DNA of 64,000 bases from Terriglobia bacterium. Its GTDB lineage: Bacteria; Acidobacteriota; UBA6911. The notes below the pieces were generated by a model that saw only the letters and a list, made by a program, of their open reading frames with translations, was not told the DNA's origin and did no database searches. Where the stretch lies: NCBI GenBank assembly GCA_963739235.1, contig CAVTZY010000024.1:386402-450401 (forward strand), read 5' to 3'. Below are positions 13,421 through 64,000 of this stretch, in pieces (positions within the stretch are counted from its first letter, which is position 1; every line of letters starts with the position of its first letter). Both the position numbers and the translations under genes were made by a program.

Positions 13421-13599
13421 TCCGGCCACAAGCTTCCTGCGCCGCCCTTTCAGGGCTCTTTTCATCGATCACCTATTCCCAGGGCTCACGCCCTGGGCTT
13501 TGCTGCGCCACCCCTTATAGTTGGTCTGCACCCGATTTTGGGTGCAGAGCATTCCCCAGCCTTGTCCAGACCCGGGAGGGTCATTTTACGACATTTCTT

Positions 13600-33163: not shown

Positions 33164-33482
33164 GCCGAGAATTTCCAGCGAATCCGGCGTCTTCCCTACG
33201 GTCACCTCGGATGGCGGCCGCAGCAGGCCGATTAGATTAATTTCATTTGATTTTCCGAAACTTCTGATAAGATTTGTTGAGAAATTGGAAACGCTGAAGA
33301 TCAGAAGGCGGGGAAATATTTCACGCCGATTCCGTATCCTCGGATAACGTTTTAACCTTGACACCTGGCAGAGGAGTTATCCGAGAGGGGGGTGGCGTTA
33401 GTGGATTCTGCCTCCATGGCAGAGCGTTGGGTAATCCTTCGGGATTTTGTTGGGAGTAATTTTGCATAGGGGAGAGCTTAAA

Positions 33483-46900: not shown

Positions 46901-49106
46901 TTACCGCCGAGGGGAGAGTGTCGAGAATGGCGGAAAATACTTTCCCGGTTGCGGTGGCGTCTCTTAGTGCAGCCGGATCGAGTCCGAGAATGCCGGCCAG
47001 CGGCGCCAGTCCTCCCGGAACAATCATGCCCGGCACACTACCGGCAGGCGCTTTTTGGGAGGTGTTGCCAAAGTGTTCTGCGGTACCGGTTACCATCAAT
47101 GACAAATACGCCAGGTGAGAGGAGAGTTCTGGGCCGGGCTTGGATGTCTGATCCGGAGGCGAAGCCTGAGAGGCCTGATAATCAAGCAGAGCCTGGCCGT
47201 ATTCTTCGATACGTTCCCTGAATCCGGCGGCTTCGCGATAAAATGCCGGCGCGTTGTCCGGCATCCTTGCAGCGCCGTCCTCGAGCACGGCCGCCGCGTT
47301 CGTGAATGCTCCGGCTCGCGCGAAGAGTCCGGATATTCGGCGGGTGGCGTTTGCATCGGATGGATTGATCGCGAGCGCCCGGCGCATGGTCAGCACGGCT
47401 TCCGGGCCATGCCCGGATTCGATTTCCGCTTCGGCCAGATGCAGTAGAATATCGGCGCGCGCGGGGGAGATGTTGCCCGCCTTCTCAAAGCTGGTTAGCG
47501 CCGATTCCCACTGGTGGGCACGTCCACGGATTTTTCCGATCTGCAAATGGACATCCGGGTCATCGGGCCGAAGCGTAGCCGCCCGCAGCGCGGTTTCAAG
47601 TGCCTTTTGGATTCTTCCGTGGATGGAGTCCATTTCCGAACCGCATATCATGGCGGTGACATTTTGCGGGTCCGCTGCCAGCGCCGCCTGGATCTGATCT
47701 GTTGCAGCCGCCTCCTTCCCGAGACGTAATAGAAGACACCCATACTCGGAATGAGCCTGGCTGCTGTCCTGACCCAGATCAGTGAGGCTGGCGTAAATCT
47801 TCCCGGCTTCATCATCGCGGCCGGCCGCCGCAAGTAGCCGGGCGAACGTCCACTTGAATTGCGCTGAGTTCGGCAGCATCTCGGGCGGCAACGACTTGAG
47901 CGTTTCGAGCGCCTCGGCCGATTTGCCAAGCTTGCGAGACACTTCCCCATAGAGGATAAGCACGCGCTCGGTTCGGGGCACAAACGCCATGACCTTCGTT
48001 AGATGTGCCTCTGCAATATTGAGTTCTCCCGCCTCCGATGCGTATTTGGCACTGAAGTAAAAGACATCGGGATTGCCCGGATCCAACTGGACGCTGTTTT
48101 GAATGAACCTGACTGCCGTTGTTGTGTCGCCGTTTTCGGCGGCTTTTTGCGCCCGTCCGATCCATTCGAACGCCTCGAGCATGCTTTCGTATTCGGGCGC
48201 AGGAGCATCTTCGTGGATGTGCCAGATCGCAGCCGGCGCACGCAAATCCAGATGGCTACCGGTCTGAGCTGCTGCCCGGATTGAGAGATCGAACCGTCCA
48301 CAAAGGGTTACGGCTGCCTTTGGCTGCACTTCGAGAAGAAAGCCTCTTCTTCGGGCGTCGCGCACCTGACGAATAACCAACGCCTCCTCAACTTCATTCG
48401 TGAAGCTCATGCCTCCTGTGGCCGCGCAGATTGAGCCGAGGCTGCCGACGCCTTCCAGGTAGCTGTGGACGACGCTCCCTTTGCGCCGGCAGGCCTCCAG
48501 GACGCGACGCTCTGCGCCGAACCTGAGGTAGCTGCTGTTATCACCGTCGAAAGACCGATCCTTGCCCACCAGGAGGCAATCCACCGGCCCACCGCCGGCT
48601 TCAGCCTTCTGCAGCAGGTCTGCTACCAGGTCCAGAAGGCGGCCCGGGCCGTTCCGCGATTCCGATTCGGTTCCCGGCATCAGGCGCATGATGGCCGACA
48701 CAATGTCGGCCGACGATGCGCCGGAACTCTCGGACGGGTCGTAAATGATCCCGTCGAGAGTCGGAATTCCCACACGAATCTTTTGCTGCGATCGGTCCGG
48801 AAACTCCGCGGCGAGCGCTGCGACAAGAGCGGTAACGCGGCGGCCCAGTTGCGGAATGGAGTATGAAGCCGGGTCGATGATGATCAGCAACGTGCGGGTC
48901 AAGCTCATGGGTGATGCTGACTTAACCTGCAATTCGACAGATGGAGCGGAGGCGGCGAAGGTGACGCCTTCTTGGGGTTCGGCCAGGTAGGCAGGAAAGA
49001 AGAACGATGTCGCTTTCTCATCCGGCTCTCGCGCCGTGAGCGTCGGCGAGCCGGCATGGAACATCGTCAAGCACAGGAACGCGAGTGCGGGAGCGAAACC
49101 CCTCAT
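43935..49106 (-). CDS. 1723-aa secreted protein: degenerate vWA-like N-terminus, TPR block, ~1100-aa C-terminal region of unknown function
   Basis: Uninterrupted 5.2-kb ORF. Signal peptide MRGFAPALAFLCLTMFHAGSPTLTA. TPR-like repeats span roughly aa 310-640. I recognise no motif in the remainder. Confidence 0.75.
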   Translation of the reverse strand: MRGFAPALAFLCLTMFHAGSPTLTAREPDEKATSFFFPAYLAEPQEGVTFAASAPSVELQVKSASPMSLTRTLLIIIDPASYSIPQLGRRVTALVAALAAEFPDRSQQKIRVGIPTLDGIIYDPSESSGASSADIVSAIMRLMPGTESESRNGPGRLLDLVADLLQKAEAGGGPVDCLLVGKDRSFDGDNSSYLRFGAERRVLEACRRKGSVVHSYLEGVGSLGSICAATGGMSFTNEVEEALVIRQVRDARRRGFLLEVQPKAAVTLCGRFDLSIRAAAQTGSHLDLRAPAAIWHIHEDAPAPEYESMLEAFEWIGRAQKAAENGDTTTAVRFIQNSVQLDPGNPDVFYFSAKYASEAGELNIAEAHLTKVMAFVPRTERVLILYGEVSRKLGKSAEALETLKSLPPEMLPNSAQFKWTFARLLAAAGRDDEAGKIYASLTDLGQDSSQAHSEYGCLLLRLGKEAAATDQIQAALAADPQNVTAMICGSEMDSIHGRIQKALETALRAATLRPDDPDVHLQIGKIRGRAHQWESALTSFEKAGNISPARADILLHLAEAEIESGHGPEAVLTMRRALAINPSDANATRRISGLFARAGAFTNAAAVLEDGAARMPDNAPAFYREAAGFRERIEEYGQALLDYQASQASPPDQTSKPGPELSSHLAYLSLMVTGTAEHFGNTSQKAPAGSVPGMIVPGGLAPLAGILGLDPAALRDATATGKVFSAILDTLPSAVNTNKLTRLQSEILDHFRTYDRLLQYMKRKGISLLPTDEAGKRQRYVLPLTGDGPAINQTKKFLSFFGIKYSSKQKKGRRAVTLIVSHDPLIQQEQRLLRRLGIDIEAQDLRELRFTMGDEILPSMIDANLMQGKILGLPNRDPRLLVAELIRRPDEMKLYLALEHCPAPWRAALLQTFSGRELIPLTQILESIGRFLDFRADGLVLPGASVSSAGAPRQDPLSLIRQFLENGRGRLVYTYYTLTCAPPAVQRLFAPSANSLDILTNLVAPKVSSDASPTHWNPEAARLVRMLAADEQRLVLPVDPRFIPYLFPSRSETGISVKDIASLVQSGGKSDPVAAPGAGAGLVEFVRFIQDVRPEILTDDGIKAIMRSPAESQIYLDLIWDIRARADLLVPYFAYCRDVAQARDTAWNVNRTRTSQSLFFLISAFCREGVIDTPTGQMLLKAALASFAAAEEPAFLDNVSTFLTDMLLPELANSLRMPADSPGLLLEALAGPIERRVFLFNGAPLVQEAHAEQLQRIKSVFGLQHLAPVADLLQAVQLAKRILASRERHTEWLQSLAAAIRKLPAPASAAATSQNKVPSPPPNAYEDLAKELEAPSDPVILRDYPAWVQRVMKQVAAVLHTELGVALLGHCYAYDGSPQSAVLSYDPDFIRKHDFYPRRQPAQTGWLEAVLLEGQGNERGGAMTGSLAGLQIQLNRLETAASAQSFGRWGPGKLLPAMLTGMRVIHSQLRTDRAQEYVALSTRLGRELMALCLPAPATDGWCDQHLAALVSPLRRNQLADLASRGDPIGALELLSPSELFFQGEAYLAEAGILPARARQRLCAYACDIDAPLKAPIIMSPALERLREIVPAEQSAELDAFQREVEQYGCSIRRRLGISDVALRFCDSYERLQNSASPDYLFDRIIDLKVRLAEIGYASGAPAAVAGMVGELALQYLVADPASTRVGSWNDLMKEIMRLGPAHQFLWMEELLNRGSLSVYSEAR

Positions 49107-49387: not shown

Positions 49388-51781
49388 TCAGGGGTTGCGC
49401 AGAGCCTGCATGGGATCCACGCTTGCAGCCCGGCGCGCCGGCAGATAGCAGGCAGCAGCGGAGACCAGGATGAAAATCAAAGAGATGCCGGCAAGAATCA
49501 GGAATTCGACCGGTCGAACTCCAAAGAGGGAAATCGAGAGCACGCGTCCGAGTATCAAGGAAGCGGCCAATCCCGGGCCGATGCCGAACAGCGTGAGGGT
49601 GAGCCCCTGACCCATAACCAATCTCAATACGTCAAGCGGCCGGGCGCCGAGCGCCACGCGCATGCCGATCTCGTGGGTGCGCTGAGAGACTGTATAGGAC
49701 AAGACCCCATAAATTCCCACAGCCGCCAGAATCAAGGCTCCCAGCGCTACCAGGCTGAGCGCGGAGGTTCCAAACCTGATGACCCCCATATTCGAGGAAC
49801 AGGCGCTCTCCATCGTCATGATGCGCGAAATCGGCTGGTCGGGATCGATCGCGCGCACCTCCTGCTTAACCGCTGCCGTGATCGCCAGCGGATCTGCGAG
49901 AGCCGTTGCCGCCACGACGGCCATGTCACCGTCTGGGGCCTGCGTGAATGGGACGAATATTTCCGGAACAGGTTTGAGGCTGAGCGGGATACTGCGTACG
50001 TCTGCAGCCACGCCGACCACGGTTCGGAGCTTACCTGCTACGTCGATCCTGCCGTCAATCGGGTTTTGATCGGTCCAGTATCTATGTGCCAGACTTTCAT
50101 TGACGATCGCCACTGCAGGCGAGGTAGCGCTATCCTGCTCCGTGAATTGCCGCCCCGCTTTCACGGCGATTGCCAAAGTGTTGAAATAGCCGGCACTCAC
50201 GGCCGTGAAGCGCGCCTGCGGCGCTTCACCGGGCGCCGGCAAAGGTCGCCCTCCAATGCTGAAGCTGCGCTGGGGAGAAGCTGTGGGCAAGTCGCTGGCA
50301 ACCCCGGCAGCACGGACTTCAGACCTGGATTCGAGGCGTCTCAATAGGTTTTGGAAAAAGGCGATTTTCCGATCGCTATCCGGGTACTGCCGGTCGGCGA
50401 GCAAGATCCTCATCGCAAGAACCTTCTCGGGACGGAAACCAAGATCGACGCTCCAGAGGCGGAACCAGCTTTTCACCGCCAGGCTCGCTCCCATCAACAG
50501 CAAGAGCGAAAAGGCTACCTCAGAAGCGACCAGAAAATCTTTGAAGCGGCGCTTCGAGACGCCTCCGGAGAGACTCCGGCTGCCTTCCTTCAAAGGCTGG
50601 CTCAACCCGGCTCCGGAAATTTGCAGGGCAGGCACCAGGCCCACCATCGTTCCCGCCAGAAGAAACAAGACCGTTGTTGCGGCCAGGACCGGCGCATCGA
50701 TCCCGATCCTAAGCAAACCCAGATTGGTGTCAATAAAGCGGGCGCTGATCCAATCGCAAGCCCAGACGGCAGCCAGAACTCCCAGGGCGCAACCAAGGAG
50801 CAGGAGCATCAGGTTCTCCGTCAGCAACTGGCATACCAGGCGCATCCGGCTTGCGCCTAAGGCCGCCCGCACCGCAAACTCCTTTTCTCGTGCCGCCGCA
50901 CGGGCCAGCAGCAGGTTGGTTACATTGGCGCAGGCGAGAGCGAGGATGGAGCCGACCAGGATGGCCAGCACGACGTAAGCCACAGTGTCGATTTCCGGGC
51001 GCAAAGGGCCGACCGATGCCGTCCAGCTTTTGTTTGTGTCGGGATGGGACGCAGCGATGCGTCGTGCAATCACCTCCATATCTGCCCGTGCGCGTTCCAG
51101 AGTGATCCCGGGTTTCAGGCGCGCCAACACCAGGCATGCTCGGGCACCGCGGTCCTCGGAAGGCGCGGGAACAAGAGGTATCCACAGGGCCGGTTCATAA
51201 CCAAGAGCCGGTGCCAGGTTCAGATTCTCCGGCAGGATTCCGACCACCGTGTGCGCCTGGCCATTCACCTTCAGGGTCTGCCCGATGATGGCCCGATCGG
51301 CGCCAAAGCGACGCTGCCAAAGATTGTGGCTCAGCAGCACCACCCGGCTGCCCTCGGCTGTGAATTCGCCCGCCAGAAAGGCGCGGCCCCAAGCGGGTTG
51401 TGCCCCCAACAGAGAGAGGGCGCTCTCCGAGACGCGCAGGCTGCTGATGCGTTCCGGTTCACTTCCTCCGGCCAGGTTGACGGCTTCAGGAGCGAATCCG
51501 GCCATATCTTCAAAAACCTGATTCTGGCCTTTCCAATCCAGAAAGGCCGGATAGGATGTCGGACCGCCGCCGCGCTGTCGCTCGCCGGCTTCGGTGACCA
51601 AGACAAGCTGTTCCGCATCTTTGAAGGGCATTGGAAAGTATATGAGGGCATGGATGACGCCGAAAATCGTGGTGTTGGTCCCGATGCCGAGGGCCAGGAT
51701 GATCACCACCACCGCGGTAAAGCCTGGTTGCGTGCGGATATTGCGCAGGCCGGAACGAAAATCTTGCACCAGGGCGCTCAT
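49388..51781 (-). CDS. Duplicated MacB/FtsX-type ABC permease (acidobacterial duplicated orphan permease type)
   Basis: Two copies of the architecture TM, MacB-like periplasmic domain, then FtsX 3-TM bundle. The ATG at 51781 (MSALVQDFRSGLRNIRTQPGFT) is the typical N-terminus. There is no adjacent ATPase gene. Confidence 0.85.
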   Translation of the reverse strand: MSALVQDFRSGLRNIRTQPGFTAVVVIILALGIGTNTTIFGVIHALIYFPMPFKDAEQLVLVTEAGERQRGGGPTSYPAFLDWKGQNQVFEDMAGFAPEAVNLAGGSEPERISSLRVSESALSLLGAQPAWGRAFLAGEFTAEGSRVVLLSHNLWQRRFGADRAIIGQTLKVNGQAHTVVGILPENLNLAPALGYEPALWIPLVPAPSEDRGARACLVLARLKPGITLERARADMEVIARRIAASHPDTNKSWTASVGPLRPEIDTVAYVVLAILVGSILALACANVTNLLLARAAAREKEFAVRAALGASRMRLVCQLLTENLMLLLLGCALGVLAAVWACDWISARFIDTNLGLLRIGIDAPVLAATTVLFLLAGTMVGLVPALQISGAGLSQPLKEGSRSLSGGVSKRRFKDFLVASEVAFSLLLLMGASLAVKSWFRLWSVDLGFRPEKVLAMRILLADRQYPDSDRKIAFFQNLLRRLESRSEVRAAGVASDLPTASPQRSFSIGGRPLPAPGEAPQARFTAVSAGYFNTLAIAVKAGRQFTEQDSATSPAVAIVNESLAHRYWTDQNPIDGRIDVAGKLRTVVGVAADVRSIPLSLKPVPEIFVPFTQAPDGDMAVVAATALADPLAITAAVKQEVRAIDPDQPISRIMTMESACSSNMGVIRFGTSALSLVALGALILAAVGIYGVLSYTVSQRTHEIGMRVALGARPLDVLRLVMGQGLTLTLFGIGPGLAASLILGRVLSISLFGVRPVEFLILAGISLIFILVSAAACYLPARRAASVDPMQALRNP

Positions 51782-51989
51782 GCGATTTACCTCCCCGTGA
51801 GTGAAATTTCCTAACAGTCGCAAGTCTAATGATGAAAACGCAATTACCCCCGAAAATGTTCCCCGCAGTTCCACGCACTGGGGCACCAAAGTGGGCGCCG
51901 TGCGAAAACGGGATGGGGATGGACCCGGATGGCGGAAAAGCCAGCGCCCCGCAGGGGAATGGACCACGAAGGGTGGAATATCCACGGCC

Positions 51990-52468: not shown

Positions 52469-54531
52469 ATGTATTTACGATGCCTGAAAAAACTGCTATG
52501 GATCCCCATTGCGATGGTTGCTCTGGTGTCGGCGCAGGAGGCTAAACGGCCGATGACGGTCGATGACGCGCTCGACATGATCCAGGTCTCCGGACCGCAG
52601 ATCTCACCCGATGGCAAATGGATCCTGTACTCGCGCTCCGACTCAAGTGGAAAGACAACAAGCGCGAATCCCGGTTTTTCATGATTCCTGCCGATGGCGG
52701 GGAGCCATTTCAATTCCTTTCCGGCGATAATGACTCGGGGCCGGCCTGGTCCCCGGATTCGTCCGGCGTTGCGTTCCTCGCTAACCGCGAGAGAGCAGCA
52801 GCAGGCGGCGAAAATGCAGGGCGGCAGATCTACCTGATCCGCACCAACGGCGGCGAGGCCGTGAAGCTGACCGACCACAAGGATGGTCTGAACTCTTTCC
52901 GCTGGTCCGAGGACGGAAAGTCGATTTTCTTCGTAGCCAACGAGCTCAAAAGCCAGGAACAGAAGGCGGCGGAAAAAGCCGGCGATGACGTGATCGCCGT
53001 GGATGAAGGATCCAATGGCCAGGGCCGTGGCCAATGGAATGAGCTCTGGGTCTATGAGCTTGCCTCCAAGAAAGAGAACAAGATCACCAAAGAAAAGATG
53101 ATCATCGGCAACTATGATCCCTCTCCTGACGGAACCAGGGTCGCGTTCACATACCGGACTGAGGATGCGCGCAATTCCGGCAACCTCTCCGAAATCGCCG
53201 TGGTCGATGTCTCATCCGGCACGATGACGCGCCTCACGAACAACAAGGCACCGGAGGGCCAGCCGAAATGGTCTCCGGATGGAAAGCTCTTGGGATTTAC
53301 TGCTGCGGGAATTACCGATTGGGATCTGCGCAACAACAAGCTCTGGATCATGGATATGGCTACGCGTCAGATCCGCCTGGCTTCCGGGACATTTGAAGGA
53401 GGCATTTCGGGGTATGAATGGCTGCCTGATCAGAAGTCCATTATCTTTGAAGGCTCGAATCGCGCATTACGAAATGTTTTCCGTCTCGATGTCGCCACCG
53501 GGAAGGTCACGCCGGTCACCAATGAGAAGGGCGTAATGAACGCGGGCAGCTACAGCCGAGACTTCACTCGCGGTGCCGGCACGTACTCCGATCCTTCCAC
53601 GCCGGGAGACATTTACCTCGTCGACCTGCGCAACGGCCAGAAGAAGCAGCTGACTCATGCGAACCCGCAGATCGCGAAGCTGGCGCTGGCCCGGACCGAG
53701 CTGGTGTCCTGGAAAAGCAAAGATGGGTTGGAGATCGAAGGCATCTTGAACCTCCCGGCGGACTACAAAGAAGGAACCAGACTCCCCCTCATTCTCAATG
53801 TGCACGGCGGCCCTGCGGGCGTTTTCGCCTACAGTTTCAGCGCCAACTATCATATCTATGCCGGCCTGGGATTCGCCTCGCTCTCGCCCAACGTGCGCGG
53901 ATCGAGCGGTTACAACGACGCTCTGTTGCGTGGCAACATGCGTGACATCGGCGGGGGAGACTACCAGGATCTGATGACCGGCGTGGACATGCTCATTGCC
54001 AAAGGTATCATCGATCCTGACAGAATGGGAATCAAAGGATGGAGCTACGGCGGCATACTCGGCGGGTGGACGATTACCCAAACCAACCGGTTCAAGGCGG
54101 CAAGCCTTGGGGCCATGGTCACCGATTGGTCGTCAGAGTATGCCATGGGATTTAACCATGACGTGCAGCTCTGGTACATCGGCGGCACTCCCTGGGATAA
54201 TCCGGCTCGATACCGTGAACAGTCTTCTTACACGCACATCAAGAACGTGCAGACCCCGACGATTCTCTTCCACGGTGAGAACGACACGACCGACACGATT
54301 GGCCAGAGCATGATGTATTATGTCGGCCTCAAGGACCGCAACGTTCCGGTGAAATTCCTCCGCTTTCCCCGCGAGCCCCATGGATTCCGCGAACCGCACC
54401 ATTCCAGAATCCGCGATATGGAAGAGCTTGCCTGGATGGAGAAGCATGTTCTGGGCAAAGAATGGAGGCCACCCGTTCGCCCGGAAGATCAGAAGAAGGA
54501 GAATCCCGCCGCCGAGCGGCATCCTTATTAG
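52469..54531 (+). CDS. S9-family prolyl oligopeptidase/acylaminoacyl-peptidase with N-terminal beta-propeller; one frameshift near 52641
   Basis: The signal peptide and first ~57 aa (..ISPDGKWILYSRS) are in one frame (track ORF 52406..52684). The rest (LKWKDNKRESRFFMIPADGGEP..) is in track ORF 52618..54531. Catalytic motifs are GWSYGG and ..HGENDTTD... Confidence 0.8.
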
Positions 54532-54560: not shown

Positions 54561-55053
54561 TCAGATCGCAGTGTTGGTGGACCCCAGGCCCCGGCCGGCG
54601 AGACTGTCTCAAAACTATGTTGCCGGCTGAAACGACAGCCCGAAGTTTGGGCAATAACCCCGGGCGTGAGCCCGGGGTTAGGCATGGTGAGGCGAAGAGC
54701 CCCTAAGGGGCAAAACCTCCGGCATCACAAGCGTTTCTCCCCTTCAGGGCTCCTATGGCCCGCATCCTAAACACCGGGCTTTCGCCCGGGGCTATTTTCT
54801 TCCGCGTCTTCGGCGCTGCAGGTTTGAGACAGTTTCCCCCGCCGGGGCCTCCGTTGCAGTTTCGCAGTGTTTTCGAAACTGAGTTGACGTTACGGGGCAT
54901 TCTTGCGGTGTTCGTCAAAGAAATCGGAGATTGCCCCAAAGCCGGGCTGCAGGACATTTTTATTATATTGAGAAGAGGTGAGGCTCTTTGCCGGAGGTCA
55001 CTTGGTTCAGAAGTTCATTTGACTGGCCTATTTGTGTTATTTCGTTTTCACGC

Positions 55054-55138
55054 CGCTCCTATTTCAAGTGGGACAAAACGATCATACGATTGGGAGAGCC
55101 CTCCTATTTTTTGATTGCCTCCTCAGAAGTAAAGTAGC
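55054..55138 (+). promoter_or_regulatory. Conserved upstream element, copy A
   Basis: CTCCTATTT..GATCATacgATTGGGAGAGCCCTCCTATTTTTTGATTGCCTCCTCAGAAGTAAAGTAG. Related copies lie at 58354-58430, 62941-63030 and 63283-63325. Confidence 0.5.
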
Positions 55139-55175: not shown

Positions 55176-55598
55176 ATGGGAAAAACCGCAATCACAGCGT
55201 CGCATTGGGTTCGGACGCTGATACAACTCGCTGCCTGCGTAGGAATCGTTCTTGTCCAGCTCGGTTACACGCATACAGCCGCGCCTTCCGGTCTGGTCCA
55301 GCAATCCCATAAATGCGCGCCTGCGCTTCAGGGCAACGTGAAAGGGACCGTAGGTACAGATGGTGCCTTGGCAGTCATGAACAACTCCGCAAACCGGAGC
55401 AGGGGAATAGTGAATGAATATGATCGCGCCCACATGCAGCGGGGGGCCGGCCAGGCCAACCATTGGGGTGATTCGATTCTTTCAAGAGCTGCCATTCTGT
55501 GGGGAGAATCCCTACGTGCCATGGCAGGCTTCGTTGCGATTATTCAGCAGCCCGCCCTGAGAGCGGCAATTCTCTGGGGGGAAGGCATGCGGGTGTAG
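55176..55598 (+). CDS. Small membrane-anchored or secreted protein whose C-terminus carries WGD/WGE units homologous to the protease repeat module
   Basis: ATG is preceded by GAGGAGA. Hydrophobic N-terminus LIQLAACVGIVLVQLG. The C-terminus HWGDSILSRAAILWGESLRAMAGFVAIIQQPALRAAILWGEGMRV parallels the ..VLWGD..IMIYKQPALASGVLWGDG.. region of the neighbouring S8 proteases. Confidence 0.5.
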   Translation: MGKTAITASHWVRTLIQLAACVGIVLVQLGYTHTAAPSGLVQQSHKCAPALQGNVKGTVGTDGALAVMNNSANRSRGIVNEYDRAHMQRGAGQANHWGDSILSRAAILWGESLRAMAGFVAIIQQPALRAAILWGEGMRV

Positions 55599-55710: not shown

Positions 55711-57690
55711 GTGAAAAAGATGACAGCAAAGCGTTCCAATCACAAGCCTGGATGGCGTTGGTTCCGGAAGTTAGGGTCGGCGATCCTGGTCGTGCTCTTC
55801 GCTGGAGTATGCCTGTTCAGCCAGTCGCCGAACTCGAACCAGGCGAAGGTTTTTGGCTTGGGCAAGCTCGATCCGATTCTCGATTCCTTGAGCGATGCCA
55901 ACATCTCGCAGAATGCCACTGCCAGCGTAATCGTTCAATTCCTTGACGACGAAGAGATCGCCGGCAAGGGATTTATCGGGCAAGCGCTAAAAAAGGTTGC
56001 GAAAGAACTTCGGAGCCGGGCTATCGCCGATGCCGGTGCTATGGTCGAGCGGGAGTTTGCCAACCTGCCCATCCATTCAGTCCGGTTGACCTTTGGCGCA
56101 CTGAAACGCCTTCAACAGAGTCCGTTCGTCAAGCGGATCTCCGTCAACCACGGCGTCAACGGCAGCACATACACGACTGCTCGCGCGATCGGCGCCGACC
56201 AGGTCTGGGCGGGTTCCTGGCTTGTGCCTTCCTACACGGGCAGCGGGATCGGCGTGGCTGTGCTGGATTCCGGTGTCGACATCCGGGGCGATCTGACCAA
56301 CCGGGTTGCCGTTCGCACTCACTTTGTTGCGAATGATGCCGACGAATATGGACACGGGACGCATGTGGCGGGTAGCATCGCCGGCAACGGCAGCATCTCG
56401 CAGGCAGGCTCGGGATATTCGGTCCAGTACAAAGGAATCGCGTACGGGGCCAAGGTCATCAGCATCCGGGTTCTGGGGACGGGTGGGAGCGGTTTAACCA
56501 GCGACGTCATCGCGGGCATTGACTGGTGCATCACCCACAAAGCCGACTACAACATCCGGGTGATCAACCTGTCACTCGGCCACCCGGTTTTTGAATCCTA
56601 TCGCACCGACCCGCTCTGCCAGGCCGTCGAACGGGCTGTGAATGCCGGTATCGTCGTTGTGGCAGCCGCCGGCAATTTCGGCAAGGGAGCCGATGGCTCC
56701 GCTGTTTATGGCGGCATCACCAGCCCGGCCAATGATCCGACTGTGATTACCGTTGGCGCCGTCGACAGCAAAGGAACGATCGCCCGCAGCGACGATACTA
56801 TTGCCAGCTACAGTTCCCGCGGCCCGACCGCGATCGACGGCGTGATCAAGCCGGACATCGTCGCCCCGGGCAATAAAGTGATCGCCTTCCCGAATCGGGA
56901 TTCCTATTTGTTTACCCAGTATCCTGCCAACCGGATCTACGCATCGGGCTCCACCGACGACAGCAAGGCATACTTCGTTTTGAGCGGCACCAGCATGGCG
57001 GCGCCCGTCGTTTCCGGAACCGTCGCACTCATGCTGCAGGCCAACCCATCGCTGACTCCCAACACCGTGAAGTACATCCTGGATTACACTGCCCAACGCA
57101 TGACCACCCCAAGCATTATCGAACAGGGGAATGGTTACGTGAACGCAGAGGGCGCAGTCCGTTTGGCACGCTCCATTTCTCAGAATTCCAACACGCTGGC
57201 GGCAGGTGCCCAGTGGATTGCCTTCCCGTTCCTGATCAGAAACTTCAGCACGATCGCCGGCGAGGGCGTTCTGTGGGGTGACGGCGTGCTCTGGGGCGAT
57301 GGCGTCCTTTGGGGTGACGGTGTGCTCTGGGGCGACGGTGTGCTCTGGGGTGATGGCGTTCTGTGGGGCGACGGCGTCCTGTGGGGCGACAATTTTACAA
57401 TCTGGAATGACAGTATCATGATCTACAAACAGCCGGCCTTGGCCAGCGGCGTCCTGTGGGGTGATGGTGTCCTGTGGGGCGATTGCGTGACTTTGAGCAA
57501 CAGCACAATCCTGAATGCGAAGGTCGGGAATAGCGCGGTTCGCAGCACGACCTCGGCAACCTGGTACACCAAGTTTGTGGACCCCACCTCAATGGGAAGC
57601 ACGAACGCGGATGCGATCCTGATTTTCGAAGCGGTGGCGTGCAGTTTGCGGGTCGGCCCGGTCGGCTCCTGGTTCTATCCTCCACGCTAA
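55711..57690 (+). CDS. S8 subtilisin-family serine protease 1 with I9-like propeptide and C-terminal GVLWGD-repeat module
   Basis: Catalytic triad contexts are GVAVLDSGVD, HGTHVAGSIAG and SGTSMAAPVVSG. Has a signal peptide, 7+2 GVLWGD units and a tail ending SWFYPPR. The alternative ATG at 55720 is possible. Confidence 0.9.
   Translation: MKKMTAKRSNHKPGWRWFRKLGSAILVVLFAGVCLFSQSPNSNQAKVFGLGKLDPILDSLSDANISQNATASVIVQFLDDEEIAGKGFIGQALKKVAKELRSRAIADAGAMVEREFANLPIHSVRLTFGALKRLQQSPFVKRISVNHGVNGSTYTTARAIGADQVWAGSWLVPSYTGSGIGVAVLDSGVDIRGDLTNRVAVRTHFVANDADEYGHGTHVAGSIAGNGSISQAGSGYSVQYKGIAYGAKVISIRVLGTGGSGLTSDVIAGIDWCITHKADYNIRVINLSLGHPVFESYRTDPLCQAVERAVNAGIVVVAAAGNFGKGADGSAVYGGITSPANDPTVITVGAVDSKGTIARSDDTIASYSSRGPTAIDGVIKPDIVAPGNKVIAFPNRDSYLFTQYPANRIYASGSTDDSKAYFVLSGTSMAAPVVSGTVALMLQANPSLTPNTVKYILDYTAQRMTTPSIIEQGNGYVNAEGAVRLARSISQNSNTLAAGAQWIAFPFLIRNFSTIAGEGVLWGDGVLWGDGVLWGDGVLWGDGVLWGDGVLWGDGVLWGDNFTIWNDSIMIYKQPALASGVLWGDGVLWGDCVTLSNSTILNAKVGNSAVRSTTSATWYTKFVDPTSMGSTNADAILIFEAVACSLRVGPVGSWFYPPR
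57265..57390 (+). repeat. 7 x 18-nt tandem repeat encoding GVLWGD (plus 2 more units at 57448-57483)
   Basis: Read directly. The units differ only at synonymous positions. Confidence 0.95.
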
Positions 57691-57718
57691 CAAGCTCCGT
57701 GCATCACCGCAGTACCTC

Positions 57719-57750
57719 GAGGCCGCCGGTTTGGAGGAGCCGGCGGCCTC
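57719..57750 (+). terminator. Hairpin after protease 1
   Basis: GAGGCCGCCGG (57719-57729), 10-nt loop, CCGGCGGCCTC (57740-57750). No clear T-run. Confidence 0.55.
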
Positions 57751-57779
57751 CGCAGTTCATCTTCATAAAAATCACGGGG

Positions 57780-58030
57780 ATTTCGGGGACAGGCGCGAAT
57801 GGCGCTTAGATAAGGATTTCAATTGGGACCCTGAAAGGGTCCAGCAGCAAAGCCCAGGGCGTGAGCCCTGGGCTTTGCTGCTCCGCCCCTTCAGGGCTTA
57901 ATCACTTGATTTGGCGGGACTAACAGGTGATTGGGGCATTCTTAACTAAGCGCCATTCGGGACAGGCGCCATAATCCCGAACTTCCAGAACAAAATACAT
58001 CAGGTTGGTTCGATTCAATTTCGGCTACAC
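57780..58030. mobile_element. Composite MITE-like element; inner element 57797-57958 with 11-bp direct repeats
   Basis: The inner element is bounded by GAATGGCGCTTAGATAAGGA / TCTTAACTAAGCGCCATTC. It is flanked by identical GGGACAGGCGC at 57786-57796 and 57959-57969. Confidence 0.65.
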
Positions 58031-58353
58031 AGGATCGGACCACGCCAAATAGTAGGATCATTAAGAATAGCTCATTCCAAGAGCGGCGGAAACGGCCTTG
58101 ACGGCAAAAAATCCCCCCCCAAAACTGCATCTAAGGAAAACCAAGGCTGAACGACGCGAGGGCACAGCAGGATCTGCCTACATATGCCAAACTACGGCCA
58201 AAAATGCAGCTACGATCATATTTCAGGGGTTTGGCAAGAGCGAAATTTTTAAGATCAGTTAGTAAGGTGGTCAATCCCCTGAACTCCAATGACAATTCCT
58301 TGCCCTGCAGTTATGTTTCCCGCTGCGGTAAATGTGCCGCCCCATCGGGACAA

Positions 58354-58430
58354 TCCTCCCATTTTTCATACTCATCCCATAGGACCGGCTGATCATCCAA
58401 ATTGGGCTTGCTGTCCCATTTTTTTTCTGC
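58354..58430 (+). promoter_or_regulatory. Conserved upstream element, copy B (immediately 5' of protease 2)
   Basis: CCTCCCATTTTT..CCCATAGGACCGGCTGATCATCCAAATTGGGCTTGCTGTCCCATTTTTTTTCTG. Confidence 0.45.
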
Positions 58431-58503
58431 AGCCTCGGATTGATACTAGCCTTGGACAGCGATTTCCAAGGGGATCATGACCGCATTAACAGAGGAGATC
58501 AAA

Positions 58504-60465
58504 ATGAACGGCAGAGCTCGAAGATGCAAACCGGGAAAAGGAGCGCCTCGGTTGATCCTGCTGGTATTCCTGGTAGCGATCTGTGTTTCTCTATTCGCCC
58601 AGTCTTCCAACTCCGGGAAGAAGCAGGCCCATGGCTTCGGGAAACTCGAGCCGGCACTCGAAATCCTAGACGGCTCAAGAATCGACCCGAATGCCACCGC
58701 CGGCGTTATCGTGCAGTTTCTCGATGATGAGGAGATTGCAGGTTGGACACGAACGAAGCAAGAGATCAGGCTGGCAGCGAGACTGGCACGCCGACAGGCA
58801 ATCGCCCTCGAAGGGGGGATTTCTGAGCGCGAGTTCGACAACATTCCAGTTCACACCGCGAGAGTCACTTTTGCCGCGCTGAAGCGCCTCGAGAGGCATC
58901 CCCAGGTCAAGCGGATTTCCATAGATTACGCCGTCATCGGCAGCACCTACACGACGGCTCGGGCCATCGGAGCAGACCAGATCTGGGCCGGTTCCTCCGG
59001 ACTGCCCGCGTTCGACGGGACCGGAATAAACGTCGCGGTGATCGACTCCGGTATTAATCTCGGCTCAAATGACCTGAACGGAAAGGTCCTCGCCTCCATG
59101 ACATTCTGCGGGTCTGACCCTAACGACAATTACGGCCACGGCACCCACGTCGCCGGCATTATCGCCGGTCAGGGGATCGATTCCACTCCCGCCGCTGGGT
59201 TTGCTGTCCAGTACAAGGGCATTGCCCCCGGAACCGGCGTATTAAACTTAAGGGTGCTGGATTCCAATGGAGTGGGGCAGACCAGCTACCTGCTGGCCGC
59301 ACTCGACTGGTGCATAACAAATAAGGCAAAATACAACATCCGGGTTATTAACCTTTCCGTTGGCCACCCCGTTTACGAGTCCTACAAGACCGATCCACTC
59401 TGCCAGGCAGTTGAAAAGTGCGTTCAAAACGGCATTGTGGTCGTGGTTGCGGCGGGAAACATTGGAAAGGGAAGCGATGGCTCGATCATATACGGCGGCA
59501 TCACCAGTCCTGCCAACGATCCGGCCGTTATCACCGTTGGGGCCGTCGATGCCAAGGGCACGATCGCTCGCAGCGACGACACCATTGCGAGCTACAGCTC
59601 GCGCGGCCCGACGGCCATAGACGGCTTGATCAAGCCCGAGATTGTCGCCCCGGGCAACAAAGTCATCTCTGTTACCGTTCACGGAAAGCTCTATAAAAGA
59701 TACTCCGCCAACCGTGTGGGCGGCACCACATCCAAATCAGATAACTATTTCATTCTTAATGGAACGAGCATGGCGGCTCCGGTGGTTTCCGGGACTGCAG
59801 CGCTTATGCTGCAGGCCAATCCGTCATTGACTCCGAATGCCGTCAAGGCCATCCTGGCATACACTGCACAGCGGATGACGACCTCCAATATTCTCGAACA
59901 GGGCAACGGCTATGTGAATGCCGAAGGCGCCGTCCGTCTCGCCCGGGCCATCGCGCAAGACACGAACATGCTGGCCAACGGTGACCAGTGGATTGCCGAA
60001 CCCTCGGCAATCAAGAACTACAGCACCATAGCAGGTGAAGGGGTCTTGTGGGGCGATGGCGTCCTATGGGGCGACGGTGTTCTGTGGGGCGACGGCGTTC
60101 TATGGGGCGATGGCGTACTCTGGGGCGACGGCGTCCTGTGGGGTGACGGCGTGCTCTGGGGGGATGGCGTCCTGTGGGGTGACAGCTTGATGATGTTCAA
60201 GCAGCCAGCCTTTGCCAACGGCGTTCTCTGGGGCGACGGGGTTCTCTGGGGCGACAGCATCATGGTCGCCACGGACACAATCCTGACTGGTCGCGGGAGC
60301 ACTGGCACGATTCGCGGCACAACGTCTGCAAAATGGTACCCGGTCTTCGTCGATCCTAATTCGATTACCAACACGGAAAGCATTCTAGGCAATGGAGACA
60401 GTGGATCTGTATCAGGCCTTGTCATCGGTCCTCCTGGAGCCTGGTTCTATCCGCCCAGGAAATAG
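58504..60465 (+). CDS. S8 subtilisin-family serine protease 2 with GVLWGD-repeat module
   Basis: ATG at 58504 is preceded by GAGGAG. Triad contexts are NVAVIDSGIN, HGTHVAGIIAG and NGTSMAAPVVSG. Has 8+2 GVLWGD units and a tail ending AWFYPPRK. Confidence 0.9.
   Translation: MNGRARRCKPGKGAPRLILLVFLVAICVSLFAQSSNSGKKQAHGFGKLEPALEILDGSRIDPNATAGVIVQFLDDEEIAGWTRTKQEIRLAARLARRQAIALEGGISEREFDNIPVHTARVTFAALKRLERHPQVKRISIDYAVIGSTYTTARAIGADQIWAGSSGLPAFDGTGINVAVIDSGINLGSNDLNGKVLASMTFCGSDPNDNYGHGTHVAGIIAGQGIDSTPAAGFAVQYKGIAPGTGVLNLRVLDSNGVGQTSYLLAALDWCITNKAKYNIRVINLSVGHPVYESYKTDPLCQAVEKCVQNGIVVVVAAGNIGKGSDGSIIYGGITSPANDPAVITVGAVDAKGTIARSDDTIASYSSRGPTAIDGLIKPEIVAPGNKVISVTVHGKLYKRYSANRVGGTTSKSDNYFILNGTSMAAPVVSGTAALMLQANPSLTPNAVKAILAYTAQRMTTSNILEQGNGYVNAEGAVRLARAIAQDTNMLANGDQWIAEPSAIKNYSTIAGEGVLWGDGVLWGDGVLWGDGVLWGDGVLWGDGVLWGDGVLWGDGVLWGDSLMMFKQPAFANGVLWGDGVLWGDSIMVATDTILTGRGSTGTIRGTTSAKWYPVFVDPNSITNTESILGNGDSGSVSGLVIGPPGAWFYPPRK
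60040..60183 (+). repeat. 8 x 18-nt tandem repeat encoding GVLWGD (plus 2 units at 60220-60255)
   Basis: Read directly. Only synonymous variation. Confidence 0.95.
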
Positions 60466-60471
60466 TTCGAG

Positions 60472-60495
60472 GGTCCGGATTTCTGAATCCGGACC
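60472..60495 (+). terminator. Short hairpin between proteases 2 and 3
   Basis: GGTCCGGAT-ttctga-ATCCGGACC. Confidence 0.45.
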
Positions 60496-60551
60496 TTCCA
60501 ATCTCATTTATGTTATTCAGGCAACAGAACCAGGTTCAGGAGAGCAATCCA

Positions 60552-62555
60552 ATGCTCGGGGGAAATAAAAAGAGATTCGATGCCAGGATCTTGAGAATCG
60601 CCTTCCTGGGAATCCTCCTGCTCGCACTTTGTTCCTCCCTCTTCAGCCAGTCGAATCCAAAGGGCAAGGCGATCGGGCAGGGCAAGCTGGAAGCGGCGCT
60701 GGACTACCTGGACGCTTCCATGATGCGCCCGGGGCAAACCGTCGACGTGATCATCCAGTTCGAGGACGACGCGACACCCGGGGAAACGGTGGAAGTGAAA
60801 AACCTGAAGAGGCTCGCCCGCCGGCAATTAATCCTCGACACCGGAGGTGAACCGGGCAGGGATTTCGACAGTTTTCCCATGCACTCGGCCAAGGCGACGG
60901 TCGGTGCACTGAAGAGGCTTGAGCAACAACCACAGGTGCAACGGATCTCCGTCGATTACGCGTTGCAGGGTCACCTGGCCACTACGGCCAAGGCCATCGG
61001 GGCGGACCAGGTGTGGGCCGGCAATTCTGGAACGTTTGGCGCGACAGGAAAGGGCATTACCGTTGCTGTCATTGACTCCGGAGTCGGCGACAACGGCCTC
61101 AGCGCCTGGGATCTGTGGACTCAGGTTCGGACGAGCCTCAACTTTGTATCGGAGTCGACCAACGTCTACGACACCTACGGCCACGGAACCCATGTCGCGG
61201 GAATCATTGCTGGGACCGGAAAGACCTCGAAATTGGACGACAGGGGGACGTACAGCGGATTTGCCGCGCAGTATAAGGGGATTGCCCCGGCGCGCAGATT
61301 CTCAGCCTGAAGGTGCTGGACGGAGAGGGAACCGGCAAGACCAGCAATGTCATCGCGGCGCTGGACTGGTGCCTCCAGAACCGGGTCAAACAGAACATGC
61401 GCATCATCAACCTCTCGCTCGGCCATCCCGTATTCGAGTCCTACAAGACAGATCCTCTCTGCCAGGCTGTGGAGGCGTGCGTCAAGAACGGAATAGTGGT
61501 CGTGGTAGCGGCTGGGAATTACGGTAAGGATGAAAACGGGCGGGTCTTCGGGGGAATCACCAGCCCGGACAATGAACCGGCCGCCATCACAGTGGGCGCC
61601 GTCGACACGCATGGTACGGTGGTTCGCAGGGACGACAACGTTGCCAGCTACAGTTCCTGCGGTCCGACCGCCATCGACGGCATCATCAAACCGGACATCG
61701 TTGCTCCGGGGAACAAGATTGTCTCCGATTCGCTGGTGCCGGGCACGCTGGCCACAAGATATCCGGTGAATCTGATTGTTTCCGCGAGCGCAAAAACACA
61801 GGGCATTTACAGTTACGCCGCCGACAGCTACTACATTATGAGCGGGACGAGTATGGCTGCCCCGGTAGTTTCAGGAACCGTCGCGCTGATGCTCGAGGGT
61901 AATCCCTCGCTGACGCCGAACGCGGTAAAGGCGATTCTGGCTTATACCGCCCAAAGAATGACCGGCCCGAGCATCCTGGAGCAGGGAAACGGCTACCTCA
62001 ACGCAGACGGGGCATTTCGGCTGGCCAAGGCGATATCGGCGGCTACCAGCAGCAAAAAGGTCATGGACGGGTCAGCCTGGATCTCCGTACCATCTTCCGT
62101 TATCCCTTTCAGCACGATCGGTGGCGAAGCCATTCTCTGGGGAGATGCCATTTTGTGGGGTGACGCGATTCTCTGGGGGGATGCTATTCTGTGGGGAGAC
62201 GGAATCCTCTGGGGGGATGGAATCCTGTGGGGCAAGACCTCAAGCGCCTGGAACGATACCCTGATGGTCTTTAAGCAACCGGCTTTGAGCCTCTGCGATT
62301 CTCTGGGGAGACGGAATCCTCCGGGGAGATGGAATAATGTGGGGAGACAGCCTGATCTGGGACTGCAAGGTCGGCTCAACGGGTGTACTCCAGGGCGTCT
62401 CCGCCCACTGGTCCTCCGCTTTCCTGGACCCGACATCGATTGCCAATTCAGTCGGGAGCGTCCTGATCTATGGTGAGCTTGGGACTCTCACAGGGTTGAG
62501 AATGGCCTCAGCCGGCAGTATGTATCTCCCGGTATTTCGGGGACAGGCGCCATAA
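60552..62555 (+). pseudogene. S8 subtilisin-family serine protease 3 (AILWGD/GILWGD repeats), two frameshifts and a MITE-derived 3' end
   Basis: The paralog alignment breaks at ~61286-61291 (..QYKGIAP|GAQILSLKVLDGEG.. continues in another frame) and at ~62288-62292 (..KQPALS|AILWGDGILRGDGIMWGD..). The last codons VFRGQAP-stop lie inside the MITE terminal repeat (62533-62550). Confidence 0.8.
62129..62236 (+). repeat. 6 x 18-nt tandem repeat encoding AILWGD x4, GILWGD, GILWGK
   Basis: Read directly. Confidence 0.95.
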
Positions 62556-62909
62556 CCTCGAAATTCCAGAACAAAAGAACATTAGTTTGGTTCGATAGAA
62601 TTTTGAGGTTATGGCGCCGTCCCGAATGGCGCTTAGATAAGGATTTCAATTGGGACCCTGAAAGGGTCCAGCAGCAAACCCCAGGGCGCAAGCCCTGAGA
62701 ACTGACGTTTGGCAAGGAATCAGCCCTGAAAGGGCGGCGCAGGCTGTGTCGCCCTTTCAGGGCTGATTTCCCGGATGACCATGAGCCCAGGGCTCACGCC
62801 CTGGGCTTTGCTGCTCCGCCCCTTCAGGGCTTAATCACTTGATTTAGCGGGACTAACAGGTGATTGGGGCATTCTTAACTAAGCGCCATTCGCGCCTGTC
62901 CCCGAAATA
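62533..62909. mobile_element. Composite MITE-like element with perfect 18-bp terminal inverted repeats; inner element 62624-62891
   Basis: TATTTCGGGGACAGGCGC (62533-62550) and GCGCCTGTCCCCGAAATA (62892-62909). The inner element is flanked by GCGCCGTCCC / GCGCCTGTCCC. Confidence 0.75.
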
Positions 62910-62940
62910 CCTGGCACAAGTGTGCCGCCTGTATGGATAG

Positions 62941-63030
62941 TGCTCCCTGTTCCCATAGGACCGCGCGATCATCTCATTGGGAGAGCCCTCCTATTTATTG
63001 CATCTTCTCTCTGAAGTACATTGGTCTCAG
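62941..63030 (+). promoter_or_regulatory. Conserved upstream element, copy C1 (partial copy C2 at 63283-63325)
   Basis: CCCATAGGACCGCGCGATCATCTCATTGGGAGAGCCCTCCTATTTATTGCATCTTCTCTCTGAAGTACATTGG. C2 reads TCATCCCATTTTTTGCACTTTTCCTTTGAAGTACATTGGG. Confidence 0.5.
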
Positions 63031-63420
63031 GTTGAGATTATTCAAGGCCATGCAGGCTCTTGTGTTGAGCGCTGATGCCCTCATTTCCTGGAGTTGATTA
63101 TGCAAGGTTTAGCCGGGTCGAGCATTCGGTCTCAAAACCAAATCGAAGGATCGAAGCGCAGAGGTGCGATGCATCTCGCCAAGAGAGCGCTGGTCGCATT
63201 CGGGATCGGATATGGGCCTGCCGCAGCTCACGGTTCCCGGCTCCTATATCCCATGGGAGCAACAGACAGACAAACAGGGAGACTCATCCCATTTTTTGCA
63301 CTTTTCCTTTGAAGTACATTGGGCAGGCAAGGTGAATTAAAGGCCTTGTTGTTGCGAGGCATTTGACGGTTTTCAAGCATTGTTTCCAGTCACGGCGGCA
63401 AGAGACGCTTAAGGTAGAAG

Positions 63421-64000
63421 ATGAACGCTTCAACAGAATCGAGTCCGCGCACTCCCAGCAGACCGAATCATCGGGCGTATTTCGGCTATCTGCATGCCGT
63501 GATCTGCTTGGGGCTGGTTTCCGTGGTCACCGCTCTCTTTCAGTTGCCGCACATGCACCTTGGCTACCAGTGGCTCATCTTCGTCGGCTTGACGATCGTT
63601 ACCAGCTCTTGCACCATCCGCATCCCCGGTACCAACTCCAAGATCTCGATCGGCGACACATTCTTTTTCACCAATGTCATCCTTTATGGAACTCCTGCAG
63701 GAATCATCACGGCTGCCGTGGATGCTCTTGTGAGTTCTTTGCGTGCCCGGAACCGGTCCCGTCGTTTCCAGTACACTCTTTTCAATGTCGCCGCCATAGC
63801 CTGCTCTGCTCAGATCGCCGGCACGGTGTTTTTCAGCACGATCCATCGAGGGCCCCTCTTCCAGCAGGGCATGCCGGCAGTCGTTGACATGTTCTTCCCT
63901 CTGGCAGCGCTGGCCTTCGCGCACTATCTTGTCAATTCCGGCAGTGTCGCCATTATCGTAGCCCTTGAAAAAAACAAGAACATCATCAGAATCTGGCGGG
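63421..64000 (+). CDS. 5' part of a polytopic membrane sensor-domain protein (continues beyond the window; N-terminal domain type seen in HD-GYP/GGDEF-class signalling proteins)
   Basis: My own translation from the ATG at 63421 is open to the window end: MNASTESSPRTPSRPNHRAYFGYLHAVICLGLVSVVTALF..TIRIPGTNSKISIGDTFFFTNVILYGTPAG... It is absent from the ORF track because there is no stop codon. At least 5 hydrophobic segments. Confidence 0.55.
   Translation, partial: MNASTESSPRTPSRPNHRAYFGYLHAVICLGLVSVVTALFQLPHMHLGYQWLIFVGLTIVTSSCTIRIPGTNSKISIGDTFFFTNVILYGTPAGIITAAVDALVSSLRARNRSRRFQYTLFNVAAIACSAQIAGTVFFSTIHRGPLFQQGMPAVVDMFFPLAALAFAHYLVNSGSVAIIVALEKNKNIIRIWR

Follow-up and report, generated by a model that had tools for sequence, protein, structure and literature searches.

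A tryptophan-bearing hexapeptide repeat on S8 proteases of Acidobacteriota and its linkage to MASE9-like membrane sensor genes

Three tandem genes for S8 subtilases in the genome of a Terriglobia bacterium (Acidobacteriota) carry, after the catalytic domain, arrays of a tryptophan-containing hexapeptide of the form x-(V/I)-L-W-G-D. The genes lie in a stretch of 64,000 nt (GenBank assembly GCA_963739235.1, contig CAVTZY010000024.1, positions 386,402 to 450,401), here termed the window, and positions are given in window coordinates unless a locus is named. The repeat peptide is under purifying selection and does not reflect recent slippage, it is restricted to S8 proteases and to Acidobacteriota, and proteases of the window's type show a conserved and previously undescribed linkage to genes for membrane proteins that resemble the MASE9 sensor domain. 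Our preferred reading, to which we assign a probability of roughly 0.45, is that the repeat forms an appendage resembling the left-handed beta-helix (LbH), with a ladder of Trp residues, on an exported protease that works together with the MASE9 sensor.

The module shared by these proteases consists, in order, of x-(V/I)-L-W-G-D hexads, an S-L-M-x-x-K-Q-P-A loop, two further hexads and a tail of about 70 residues ending W-[FY]-Y-P. The three protease genes and their arrays are on the forward strand. In protease 1 (55711-57690) seven GVLWGD units form the main array (57265-57390), followed by the conserved loop NFTIWNDSIMIYKQPALAS (57391-57447; consensus W-x-D-S-L-M-x-x-K-Q-P-A in alignments A2 and A4), a second array of two GVLWGD units (57448-57483) and a tail of about 68 aa (57484-57687) that ends GPVGSWFYPPR. 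Protease 2 (58477-60465) has eight GVLWGD units (60040-60183) and two more (60220-60255), with a tail that extends to 60462 and ends WFYPPRK. The same alignments reveal two conserved tail motifs, W-Y-x-x-F-V-D-P-x-S and G-P-x-G-x-W-F-Y-P. A six-frame motif scan and Tandem Repeats Finder (TRF), which reports a period of 18 nt at the array positions, reproduced the repeat counts and coordinates that a first-pass annotation of the window had given for proteases 1 and 2. In protease 3 (60510-62555) the main array reads four AILWGD units, GILWGD and GILWGK (62129-62236), and the second array reads AILWGD, GILRGD and GIMWGD (62295-62348). That annotation had listed these units correctly, including three degenerate ones, and had missed that the second array and the tail stand in a different frame from the main array. 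The C-terminus of protease 3 reads ...MYLPVFRGQAP, and the WFYPPR(K) ending assigned to all three proteins therefore holds for the first two. A sortase-type sorting signal at W[FY]YP was set aside, as neither a transmembrane helix nor a basic tail follows the motif.

Proteases 1 and 2 are intact open reading frames (ORFs) of 659 and 662 aa that share 62.6% identity and score 174.6 and 165.1 bits against Pfam Peptidase_S8 (PF00082; cutoff 21.8). Protease 1 has a signal peptide at about aa 1-37, with a cleavage site inferred from reading the sequence, a propeptide at about aa 50-150 located by an AlphaFold2 model and Foldseek, and an S8 domain at aa 177-464 (56239-57102) with the triad D186, H215 and S428. 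These three residues and the oxyanion residue N322 occupy nearly invariant columns in an alignment of 122 sequences. The propeptide had been annotated as I9-like. No Pfam I9 match was obtained for proteases 1 and 2 at E ≤ 1, and the assignment stands on structural grounds: the propeptide and S8 domain of protease 1 are modelled with pLDDT above 90, and Foldseek aligned the model over 431-483 columns with pro-Tk-SP, pro-Tk-subtilisin and pro-subtilisin E. Relatives of the window proteases give weak Pfam I9 matches. Foldseek with the full-length model returned subtilases only. The closest solved relative of the propeptide and catalytic domain is Tk-SP of Thermococcus kodakarensis (3afg; phmmer E 3.9e-46, Foldseek E 1e-32), which likewise has a non-catalytic C-terminal domain, a stabilising beta-jelly roll, but has no hexapeptide array and no sensor partner. 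Proteases 1 and 2 thus appear from their sequences to be exported, propeptide-bearing and apparently active subtilases. Identity as mycosins of type VII secretion (TIGR03921) was rejected, with scores of 141.8 and 151.8 bits against an equivalog cutoff of 278.75.

The evidence for selection comes from comparing repeat units at the DNA level. The 19 GVLWGD units of proteases 1 and 2 are encoded by 18 distinct DNA strings, which carry 12 extra nucleotide states at six sites; all 12 are synonymous, and of the 54 single-base changes possible in the GVLWGD codons 14 have a silent outcome. In 132 arrays from related loci, the mean difference between units that encode an identical peptide is 2.1 nt, and 88% of these pairs are not the same at the DNA level. 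The first-pass annotation had reported the invariant peptide with synonymous variation and had argued from it for selection on the peptide; both points are borne out in the window and in the wider set of arrays. An assembly or slippage artefact without biological meaning might be suspected from the two frame errors in the assembled protease 3 gene and from several database relatives that are frameshifted fragments. This explanation is effectively refuted by the silent nature of every difference among 18 distinct units, and an assembly artefact is unlikely because arrays of the same architecture and similar copy number recur in 127 independently assembled loci. Genuine slippage repeats, moreover, have identical units. 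Two such cases, L032 (5316-5408, in a metagenome-assembled genome (MAG) of Chloroflexia) and L033 (about 5987-6025, in a cyanobacterial MAG), are the only matches outside Acidobacteriota to the DNA pattern that we used to find relatives. They are perfect 18-nt repeats that would encode GMFWGD and AIFWGD, are not part of any S8 gene, and were rejected as members of the family: identical units outside S8 genes mark them as unrelated look-alikes.

To find relatives, species-representative genomes and metagenomes were scanned with a degenerate DNA pattern for W-G-D-[GA]-[VI]-L-W-G-D-[GA]-[VI]-L-W. The genome scan gave 35 stretches, 33 of them in Acidobacteriota, including a degenerate version in the isolate Mor1, and the metagenome scan gave 94. 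There are 127 real loci beyond the window, and all the named ones belong to Acidobacteriota. The pattern needs two perfect units, so that the uniformity of units across these loci is partly a selection effect; the proteins P0011-P0018, found by homology alone, show the same arrays. The S8 His and Ser motifs are present in 109 of the 152 ORF pieces that bear the repeat; almost all others are truncated at contig ends or represent frameshift fragments with a match to an S8 hidden Markov model (HMM). Nine of ten sampled profile matches are S8 proteins, and the tenth, P0136 (278 aa), has no Pfam match. The repeat was seen on no protein identifiable as non-S8 among the ORF pieces and sampled profile matches. 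The survey of taxonomic spread and fusion partners that the first-pass annotation had recommended therefore points to one phylum and one type of fusion.

The repeat-bearing proteins fall into three classes. In class A, the majority and the type found in the window, the array is followed by the S-L-M-x-x-K-Q-P-A loop, two units and a tail of about 70 aa ending W-[FY]-Y-P. Class B proteins end directly in up to 33 units. In class C the array is followed by an Fn3-like tail of about 127 aa, for which no Pfam match was found. Tandem arrangements of at least two repeat-bearing genes occur in 16 of 98 loci, and locus L130 has three such genes.

The module had been described as unassigned, and profile searches agree with this description. 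The C-terminal 156 aa of proteases 1 and 2 gave no Pfam or NCBIfam match at E ≤ 1, and seven other Trp-rich arrays gave nothing usable in Pfam at E ≤ 10; the Mor1 array has a sub-threshold match (17.9 bits) to the Reovirus sigma C beta-spiral. A search of Protein Data Bank (PDB) sequences with a single module found nothing significant, returning an antibody chain and one LbH protein at E 0.03-0.2. In the full-text-searchable literature, nothing relevant was found for the repeat motif strings or for hexapeptide or Trp repeats in subtilases. The RTX nonapeptide GGxGxDxUx (period 9) and the choline or cell-wall binding repeat (CW_binding_1, about 20 residues) had already been set aside for this module, correctly so, since its period is 6 and it gives no Pfam match to either. 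A word-indexed homology search with the module gave 10 matches, mostly fragments; an exhaustive profile search gave 89 representatives among 1.84 billion proteins. A look-up of the exact protease 1 sequence found no identical entry in the protein collection used. Judged by these searches, the Trp hexapeptide is a repeat class covered by no curated family that we found.

The gene cluster continues into a fourth gene, overlooked by the first-pass annotation, that begins 866 nt downstream of protease 3. Its 5′ part (63421-64000, + strand, 193 codons) runs past the end of the window and encodes a polytopic membrane protein that resembles MASE9 sensors. A membrane protein of about 250 aa adjoins the proteases in the contexts of relatives, and tblastn with the neighbours from L131 and L130 identified the window gene at 63457-63999 (39% identity over 181 aa, E 6e-38). 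The neighbour protein has tblastn matches in more than 60 of the loci fetched with the DNA pattern. The piece in the window scores 17.8 bits against Pfam MASE9 (PF20972), below the cutoff of 24.3, and homologues in L130, L006 and L013 score 29.1, 34.5 and 29.1 bits against the same model. An ortholog of the window gene in L004, at 90% nucleotide identity, encodes more than 341 aa. The passages on MASE9 in Galperin and Chou (bioRxiv 10.1101/2021.11.05.467447) describe a membrane sensor with eight predicted transmembrane segments and only short periplasmic loops, found on HD-GYP and GGDEF-EAL proteins, whose ligand is unknown and is thought to be bound within the membrane.

The association is widespread among related loci. 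In 80 loci at least 900 bp of sequence is available beyond the last protease; a MASE9-like gene occupies this downstream position in 45 of them, always in the orientation of the protease and at a median distance of about 120 nt. Counted per gene, 57 of 71 class A genes have such a neighbour versus 6 of 32 others (Fisher p = 6e-9, uncorrected for relatedness). Clustering of the neighbours gives 41 groups at 70% identity and 17 at 50%. The neighbours occur as stand-alone or doubled proteins or are fused to HD-GYP-GAF-GGDEF, HD-GYP-GAF, HD-GYP, GGDEF-EAL or HisKA-HATPase_c. In a reverse search from the sensor protein, a class A S8 gene lay within 2 kb in 4 of 4 contexts. The HD-GYP, HD-GYP-GAF-GGDEF and GGDEF-EAL fusions are shared with MASE9 proteins as presented in the passages cited above (bioRxiv 10.1101/2021.11.05.467447), but many of the neighbours found here are stand-alone or doubled without an output domain, and histidine-kinase fusions also occur; a fixed protease partner goes unmentioned in those passages. 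Two side observations concern these neighbours. A small DUF2007 gene follows the MASE9-like gene in L131, L134 and L136. The MASE9-like domain also weakly matches substrate-binding (S) components of energy-coupling factor (ECF) transporters (L051 9455-11767, ECF-ribofla_trS 27.0 bits against a cutoff of 26.7; FolT E 0.001), a resemblance that hints at a shared ligand-binding membrane fold.

Several lines of evidence point to a fold for the repeat. The hexad W-G-D-G-V-L fits the LbH hexad [LIV]-[GAED]-x-x-[STAV]-x except at its first position, where Trp would occupy position i. A PDB search with a profile of 11 class A modules gave six matches, all to LbH proteins (best 3vnp, E 0.0063), and a profile of 35 class A modules gave ten, again all to LbH proteins (E 0.08 to 2.6). 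HMMER alignments to LbH proteins place Trp on core position i of [LIV]-G-x-x-[STAV]-x, and the K-Q-P-A loop aligns with a loop of 3vnp, a gamma-carbonic-anhydrase-like LbH protein. Where class B arrays contain non-Trp units, these often come back at every third unit (24 cases), the spacing expected of three-sided coils with an 18-residue superperiod, and also at lags 1, 2 and 4; TRF periods of 18, 36 and 54 score similarly. Structure prediction, which the first-pass annotation had proposed, was confident for the propeptide and S8 domain and did not fold the array as a whole. The AlphaFold2 runs used 122 sequences for full-length protease 1 and 18 for the isolated module. In the full-length model the first array units form strands (pLDDT 65-86), and the tail reaches pLDDT 74-87 as against about 50 when modelled alone. 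Because the tail is confident only in the full-length model, this difference suggests that it packs on the catalytic domain.

Relatives of the window proteases place the repeat in a broader setting. Full-length relatives in the series P0011-P0130 share about 40% identity, and JGI names many of them AprX; nearly every one has a short repeat of some kind at the equivalent C-terminal site, behind a conserved T-I-A-G anchor. The repeat flavours include GNVLWS, [ST]xV[IV]WG[TD], DGILWGT plus six residues, the octapeptide DDNIVWGQ and the Trp-free DG[VT][LI][IV][ST]D. The Trp-free arrays match Hexapep, LbH_EIF2B and GMPPB_C, with the Hexapep match of P0112 alone above its cutoff (29.7 against 27 bits). 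The DDNIVWGQ octapeptide of P0058 matches LbR_Ice_bind (PF21300), the family of the grass antifreeze beta-roll, with 44 bits (cutoff 30), and on this basis the C-terminal site of the proteases appears to host beta-solenoid-type repeats in this clade; the window's hexapeptide arrays differ in period and give no match to that family. Because cousin repeats at the same site match LbH and beta-roll families, the repeat of the window is probably the Trp-bearing and most regular form of a variable solenoid-type appendage. For each of three proteins with other Trp-containing flavours (P0050, P0119 and P0118), the next gene downstream encodes about 825 aa with HD-GYP-GAF-GGDEF domains; the MASE9 match is faint or weak for two of these followers, and none is on record for that of P0118. 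Neither P0127, which has a Trp flavour, nor the Trp-free P0056 is followed by an HD-GYP-GAF-GGDEF gene.

Taken with the hexad fit and the LbH-only PDB profile matches, the Trp-free cousins mean that the first-pass annotation went too far in dismissing an LbH context for the repeat. The known LbH families (Hexapep PF00132, LbH_EIF2B PF25084 and GMPPB_C PF25087, with examples such as LpxA and gamma-carbonic-anhydrase-like proteins) share the period of 6 with the window units, the G-D-G-V part of the unit fits their hexad, and a loop interrupts the array as in the gamma-carbonic-anhydrase-like members. The window module differs in having Trp in place of a small aliphatic core residue, in being attached to a secreted protease rather than a transferase, and in having units that are near-identical rather than degenerate. 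At about even odds, and judging from sequence comparisons, an LbH-like solenoid is the most likely fold. Such a fold may need trimerisation or Ca2+, neither of which is supplied by a monomer model.

According to our preferred reading, the three tandem paralogues would belong to an Acidobacteriota-specific clade of Sec-exported, propeptide-activated S8 subtilases. Their hexads would be of LbH type, with Trp replacing the aliphatic core residue, and would build a short solenoid with stacked Trp and Asp ladders. The protease genes and the downstream same-strand gene for a MASE9-type sensor form a cassette, in which the module may hold or present the exported protease at the sensor on the outer face of the cytoplasmic membrane, a contact that would link extracytoplasmic proteolysis to signalling through c-di-GMP or histidine kinases. 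What we infer in this scheme is the fold of the module, the co-transcription of the genes, the physical contact between protease and sensor, and the direction in which the signal runs. LapD-LapG (PMC3032553) and PdeC (PMC5897775), in which a membrane c-di-GMP protein is tied to a periplasmic protease, offer a precedent for the logic only: LapG is a cysteine protease that is bound by a periplasmic domain of LapD, whereas MASE9 has short periplasmic loops.

A number of observations weigh against this scheme. Most of the array is modelled with pLDDT 26-44, and the isolated module has a mean of 47; for canonical LbH domains, good predictions are the rule. Pfam offers no family for any Trp-containing array at E ≤ 10 (for the window modules, no LbH model at E ≤ 1), each PDB match to an LbH protein is weak (E 0.006 to 2.6), and we know of no precedent for Trp at the LbH core position. 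Non-Trp units recur at lags 2 and 4 as well, and the length of class A arrays ranges from 2 to 8 units, so that a fixed fold is not required. As to the sensor, the MASE9 census makes no correction for kinship between contigs, and 14 class A genes lack a MASE9-like neighbour. Most class B proteins lack one also, and therefore the repeat alone does not predict a sensor. In the window itself, co-transcription is uncertain because the 866-nt gap holds palindromic elements.

Other explanations have to be set against the same evidence. The repeat may be a generic accessory domain that serves stability, oligomerisation or binding of insoluble substrates, the envelope or polysaccharides, with the MASE9 linkage reflecting shared regulation only; attachment to the surface or to polysaccharide had been the guess of the first-pass annotation. 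C-terminal accessory domains are common in subtilases, including Tk-SP, and LbH domains usually trimerise. The presence of the repeat without a sensor neighbour in class B and Fn3-tailed proteins would also fit, as would the wide variation of repeat flavour across the clade. This explanation seems to us rather unlikely, since the same-strand, short-gap linkage of class A genes to MASE9-like genes persists over 41 clusters at 70% identity and several output types, and shared regulation fails to explain a single constant sensor family. A C-terminal pro-region that assists passage through the outer membrane and is removed on maturation, as in aqualysin-type subtilases, is consistent with Sec signal peptides in a diderm phylum and with an extreme C-terminus that is conserved and rich in aromatic residues; such C-terminal pro-sequences are known in Gram-negative subtilases. 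We consider it very unlikely, because no similarity to known C-terminal pro-regions or autotransporter barrels was found in Pfam, NCBIfam or the PDB, because such strong repeat conservation is unexpected in a discarded segment, and because it leaves the sensor linkage unexplained.

It is also conceivable that the array is a multi-copy peptide precursor, which the subtilase would cut in cis or in trans into Trp hexapeptides that serve as a membrane-partitioning ligand of MASE9. All residues are constant over the 19 units of paralogues that are only 62.6% identical, with silent sites near saturation, a constancy seen more often in repeated product peptides than in the rungs of a solenoid. Units are uniform within a protein and differ between paralogues, copy number varies freely, and in many class B proteins the D of a unit is the very last residue. 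The failure of AlphaFold2 to fold the array fits this idea, as do the intramembrane ligand binding suggested for MASE9 in the passages cited above, the weak resemblance of the MASE9-like family to ECF S components and the recurrence of Opp-type peptide transporter genes nearby in relatives. Against these points stand the absence of spacers or processing motifs between units, which makes cleavage hypothetical; the structural appearance of the more degenerate arrays of related clades; the profile matches in the PDB, which are to LbH proteins only; the strands modelled for the first units; the conserved tail after the array; and class B, where the longest arrays mostly have no sensor neighbour. 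On balance we regard a precursor as improbable. An extension of the idea, in our estimation no more probable, would make the array a fused pro-signal whose released hexapeptides bind an ECF-S-like pocket of MASE9. Protease and sensor would then form a protease-encoded autoinducer or activity-reporter circuit for c-di-GMP and two-component outputs, with GVLWGD, AILWGD and GIMWGE as distinct signal types.

The first-pass annotation had identified three tandem S8 subtilases, which holds for the S8 identity of all three and the intact state of the first two, and had overlooked two frameshifts that split protease 3 into three reading-frame pieces of the same architecture, over which the S8 triad and oxyanion motifs are spread. 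As located by tblastn and inspection of the DNA, one frame change lies near 61285 (a CCCC run that is one C short) and the other near 62288 (an extra base after KQPAL). They cancel each other, and all three pieces are otherwise open. In L003, the closest genome, the ortholog (78% identity) can be aligned without a change of frame, so that protease 3 is either a recently formed pseudogene or a gene with two sequence errors. A relic of a fourth C-terminal module (HWGDSILSRAAILWGES...IIQQPALRAAILWGEG; + strand, 55464-55589) was located by tblastn and motif scan; it has two AILWGE units around a QQPAL loop and no S8 domain upstream, and it matches protease 1 with 38% identity over 42 aa (E 5e-6, tblastn). 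The small ORF at 55176-55598 gave no Pfam match. Further paralogues with an internal deletion or frameshift are found in L131 (7764-8858) and L134 (1-1780), and birth and loss of genes seem to be frequent in the repeat-bearing S8 family.

Two kinds of repeated DNA surround the genes. A palindromic intergenic element of about 210 nt (-124.7 kcal/mol, z = -10.7) separates proteases 1 and 2 at 57777-57995; rearranged copies lie downstream of protease 3 (62540-62911), the element also occurs at 54772-54817, and short pieces are found at 1274-1426, 13478-13516 and 15211-15259. Against the Rfam model Acido-Lenti-1 (RF01687; cutoff 37 bits), the core hairpin of the element scores 51.9 and 40.9 bits, and a third copy reaches 35.2. 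The element looks like a dispersed REP- or MITE-like element, and the Rfam match is consistent with an Acidobacteriota origin. A short repeat (GGGAGAGCCCTCCTATTT...) with a terminator-like hairpin (55079-55137, 62961-63040 and 63277-63322) occurs on both flanks of the cluster and is also present in L004. The genes upstream of the cluster (52618-54531, 49388-51985, 43935-49106, 39770-42649 and 33447-37274) encode an S9 prolyl-oligopeptidase-family peptidase with a beta-propeller, a MacB/FtsX-type permease, large TPR and VWA-TPR proteins and an outer-membrane beta-barrel with CarboxypepD_reg. None of them recurs beside the proteases in other loci. Genes for Opp/Dpp-type peptide ABC transporters (SBP_bac_5, BPD_transp_1, ABC_tran), not found in the window, lie within a few kb of Trp-repeat S8 genes in L130, L137, L140, L141 and L142.

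The repeat is best filed as a Trp-cored variant of the hexapeptide solenoid repeats on S8 proteases, with a MASE9 pairing, and not outside the known kinds. Trp makes up one residue in six of a repeat in which every position is under purifying selection and which AlphaFold2 is unable to fold. If it is a true LbH with a Trp core, it widens what the LbH fold can hold. MASE9, a widespread domain with an unknown ligand, gains a concrete candidate partner in a dedicated exported protease with a Trp-rich module. Acidobacteriota are abundant but poorly cultured bacteria of soil and sediment, and a link between extracellular proteolysis, peptide uptake and the control of lifestyle by c-di-GMP, if true, would bear on how they process organic nitrogen.

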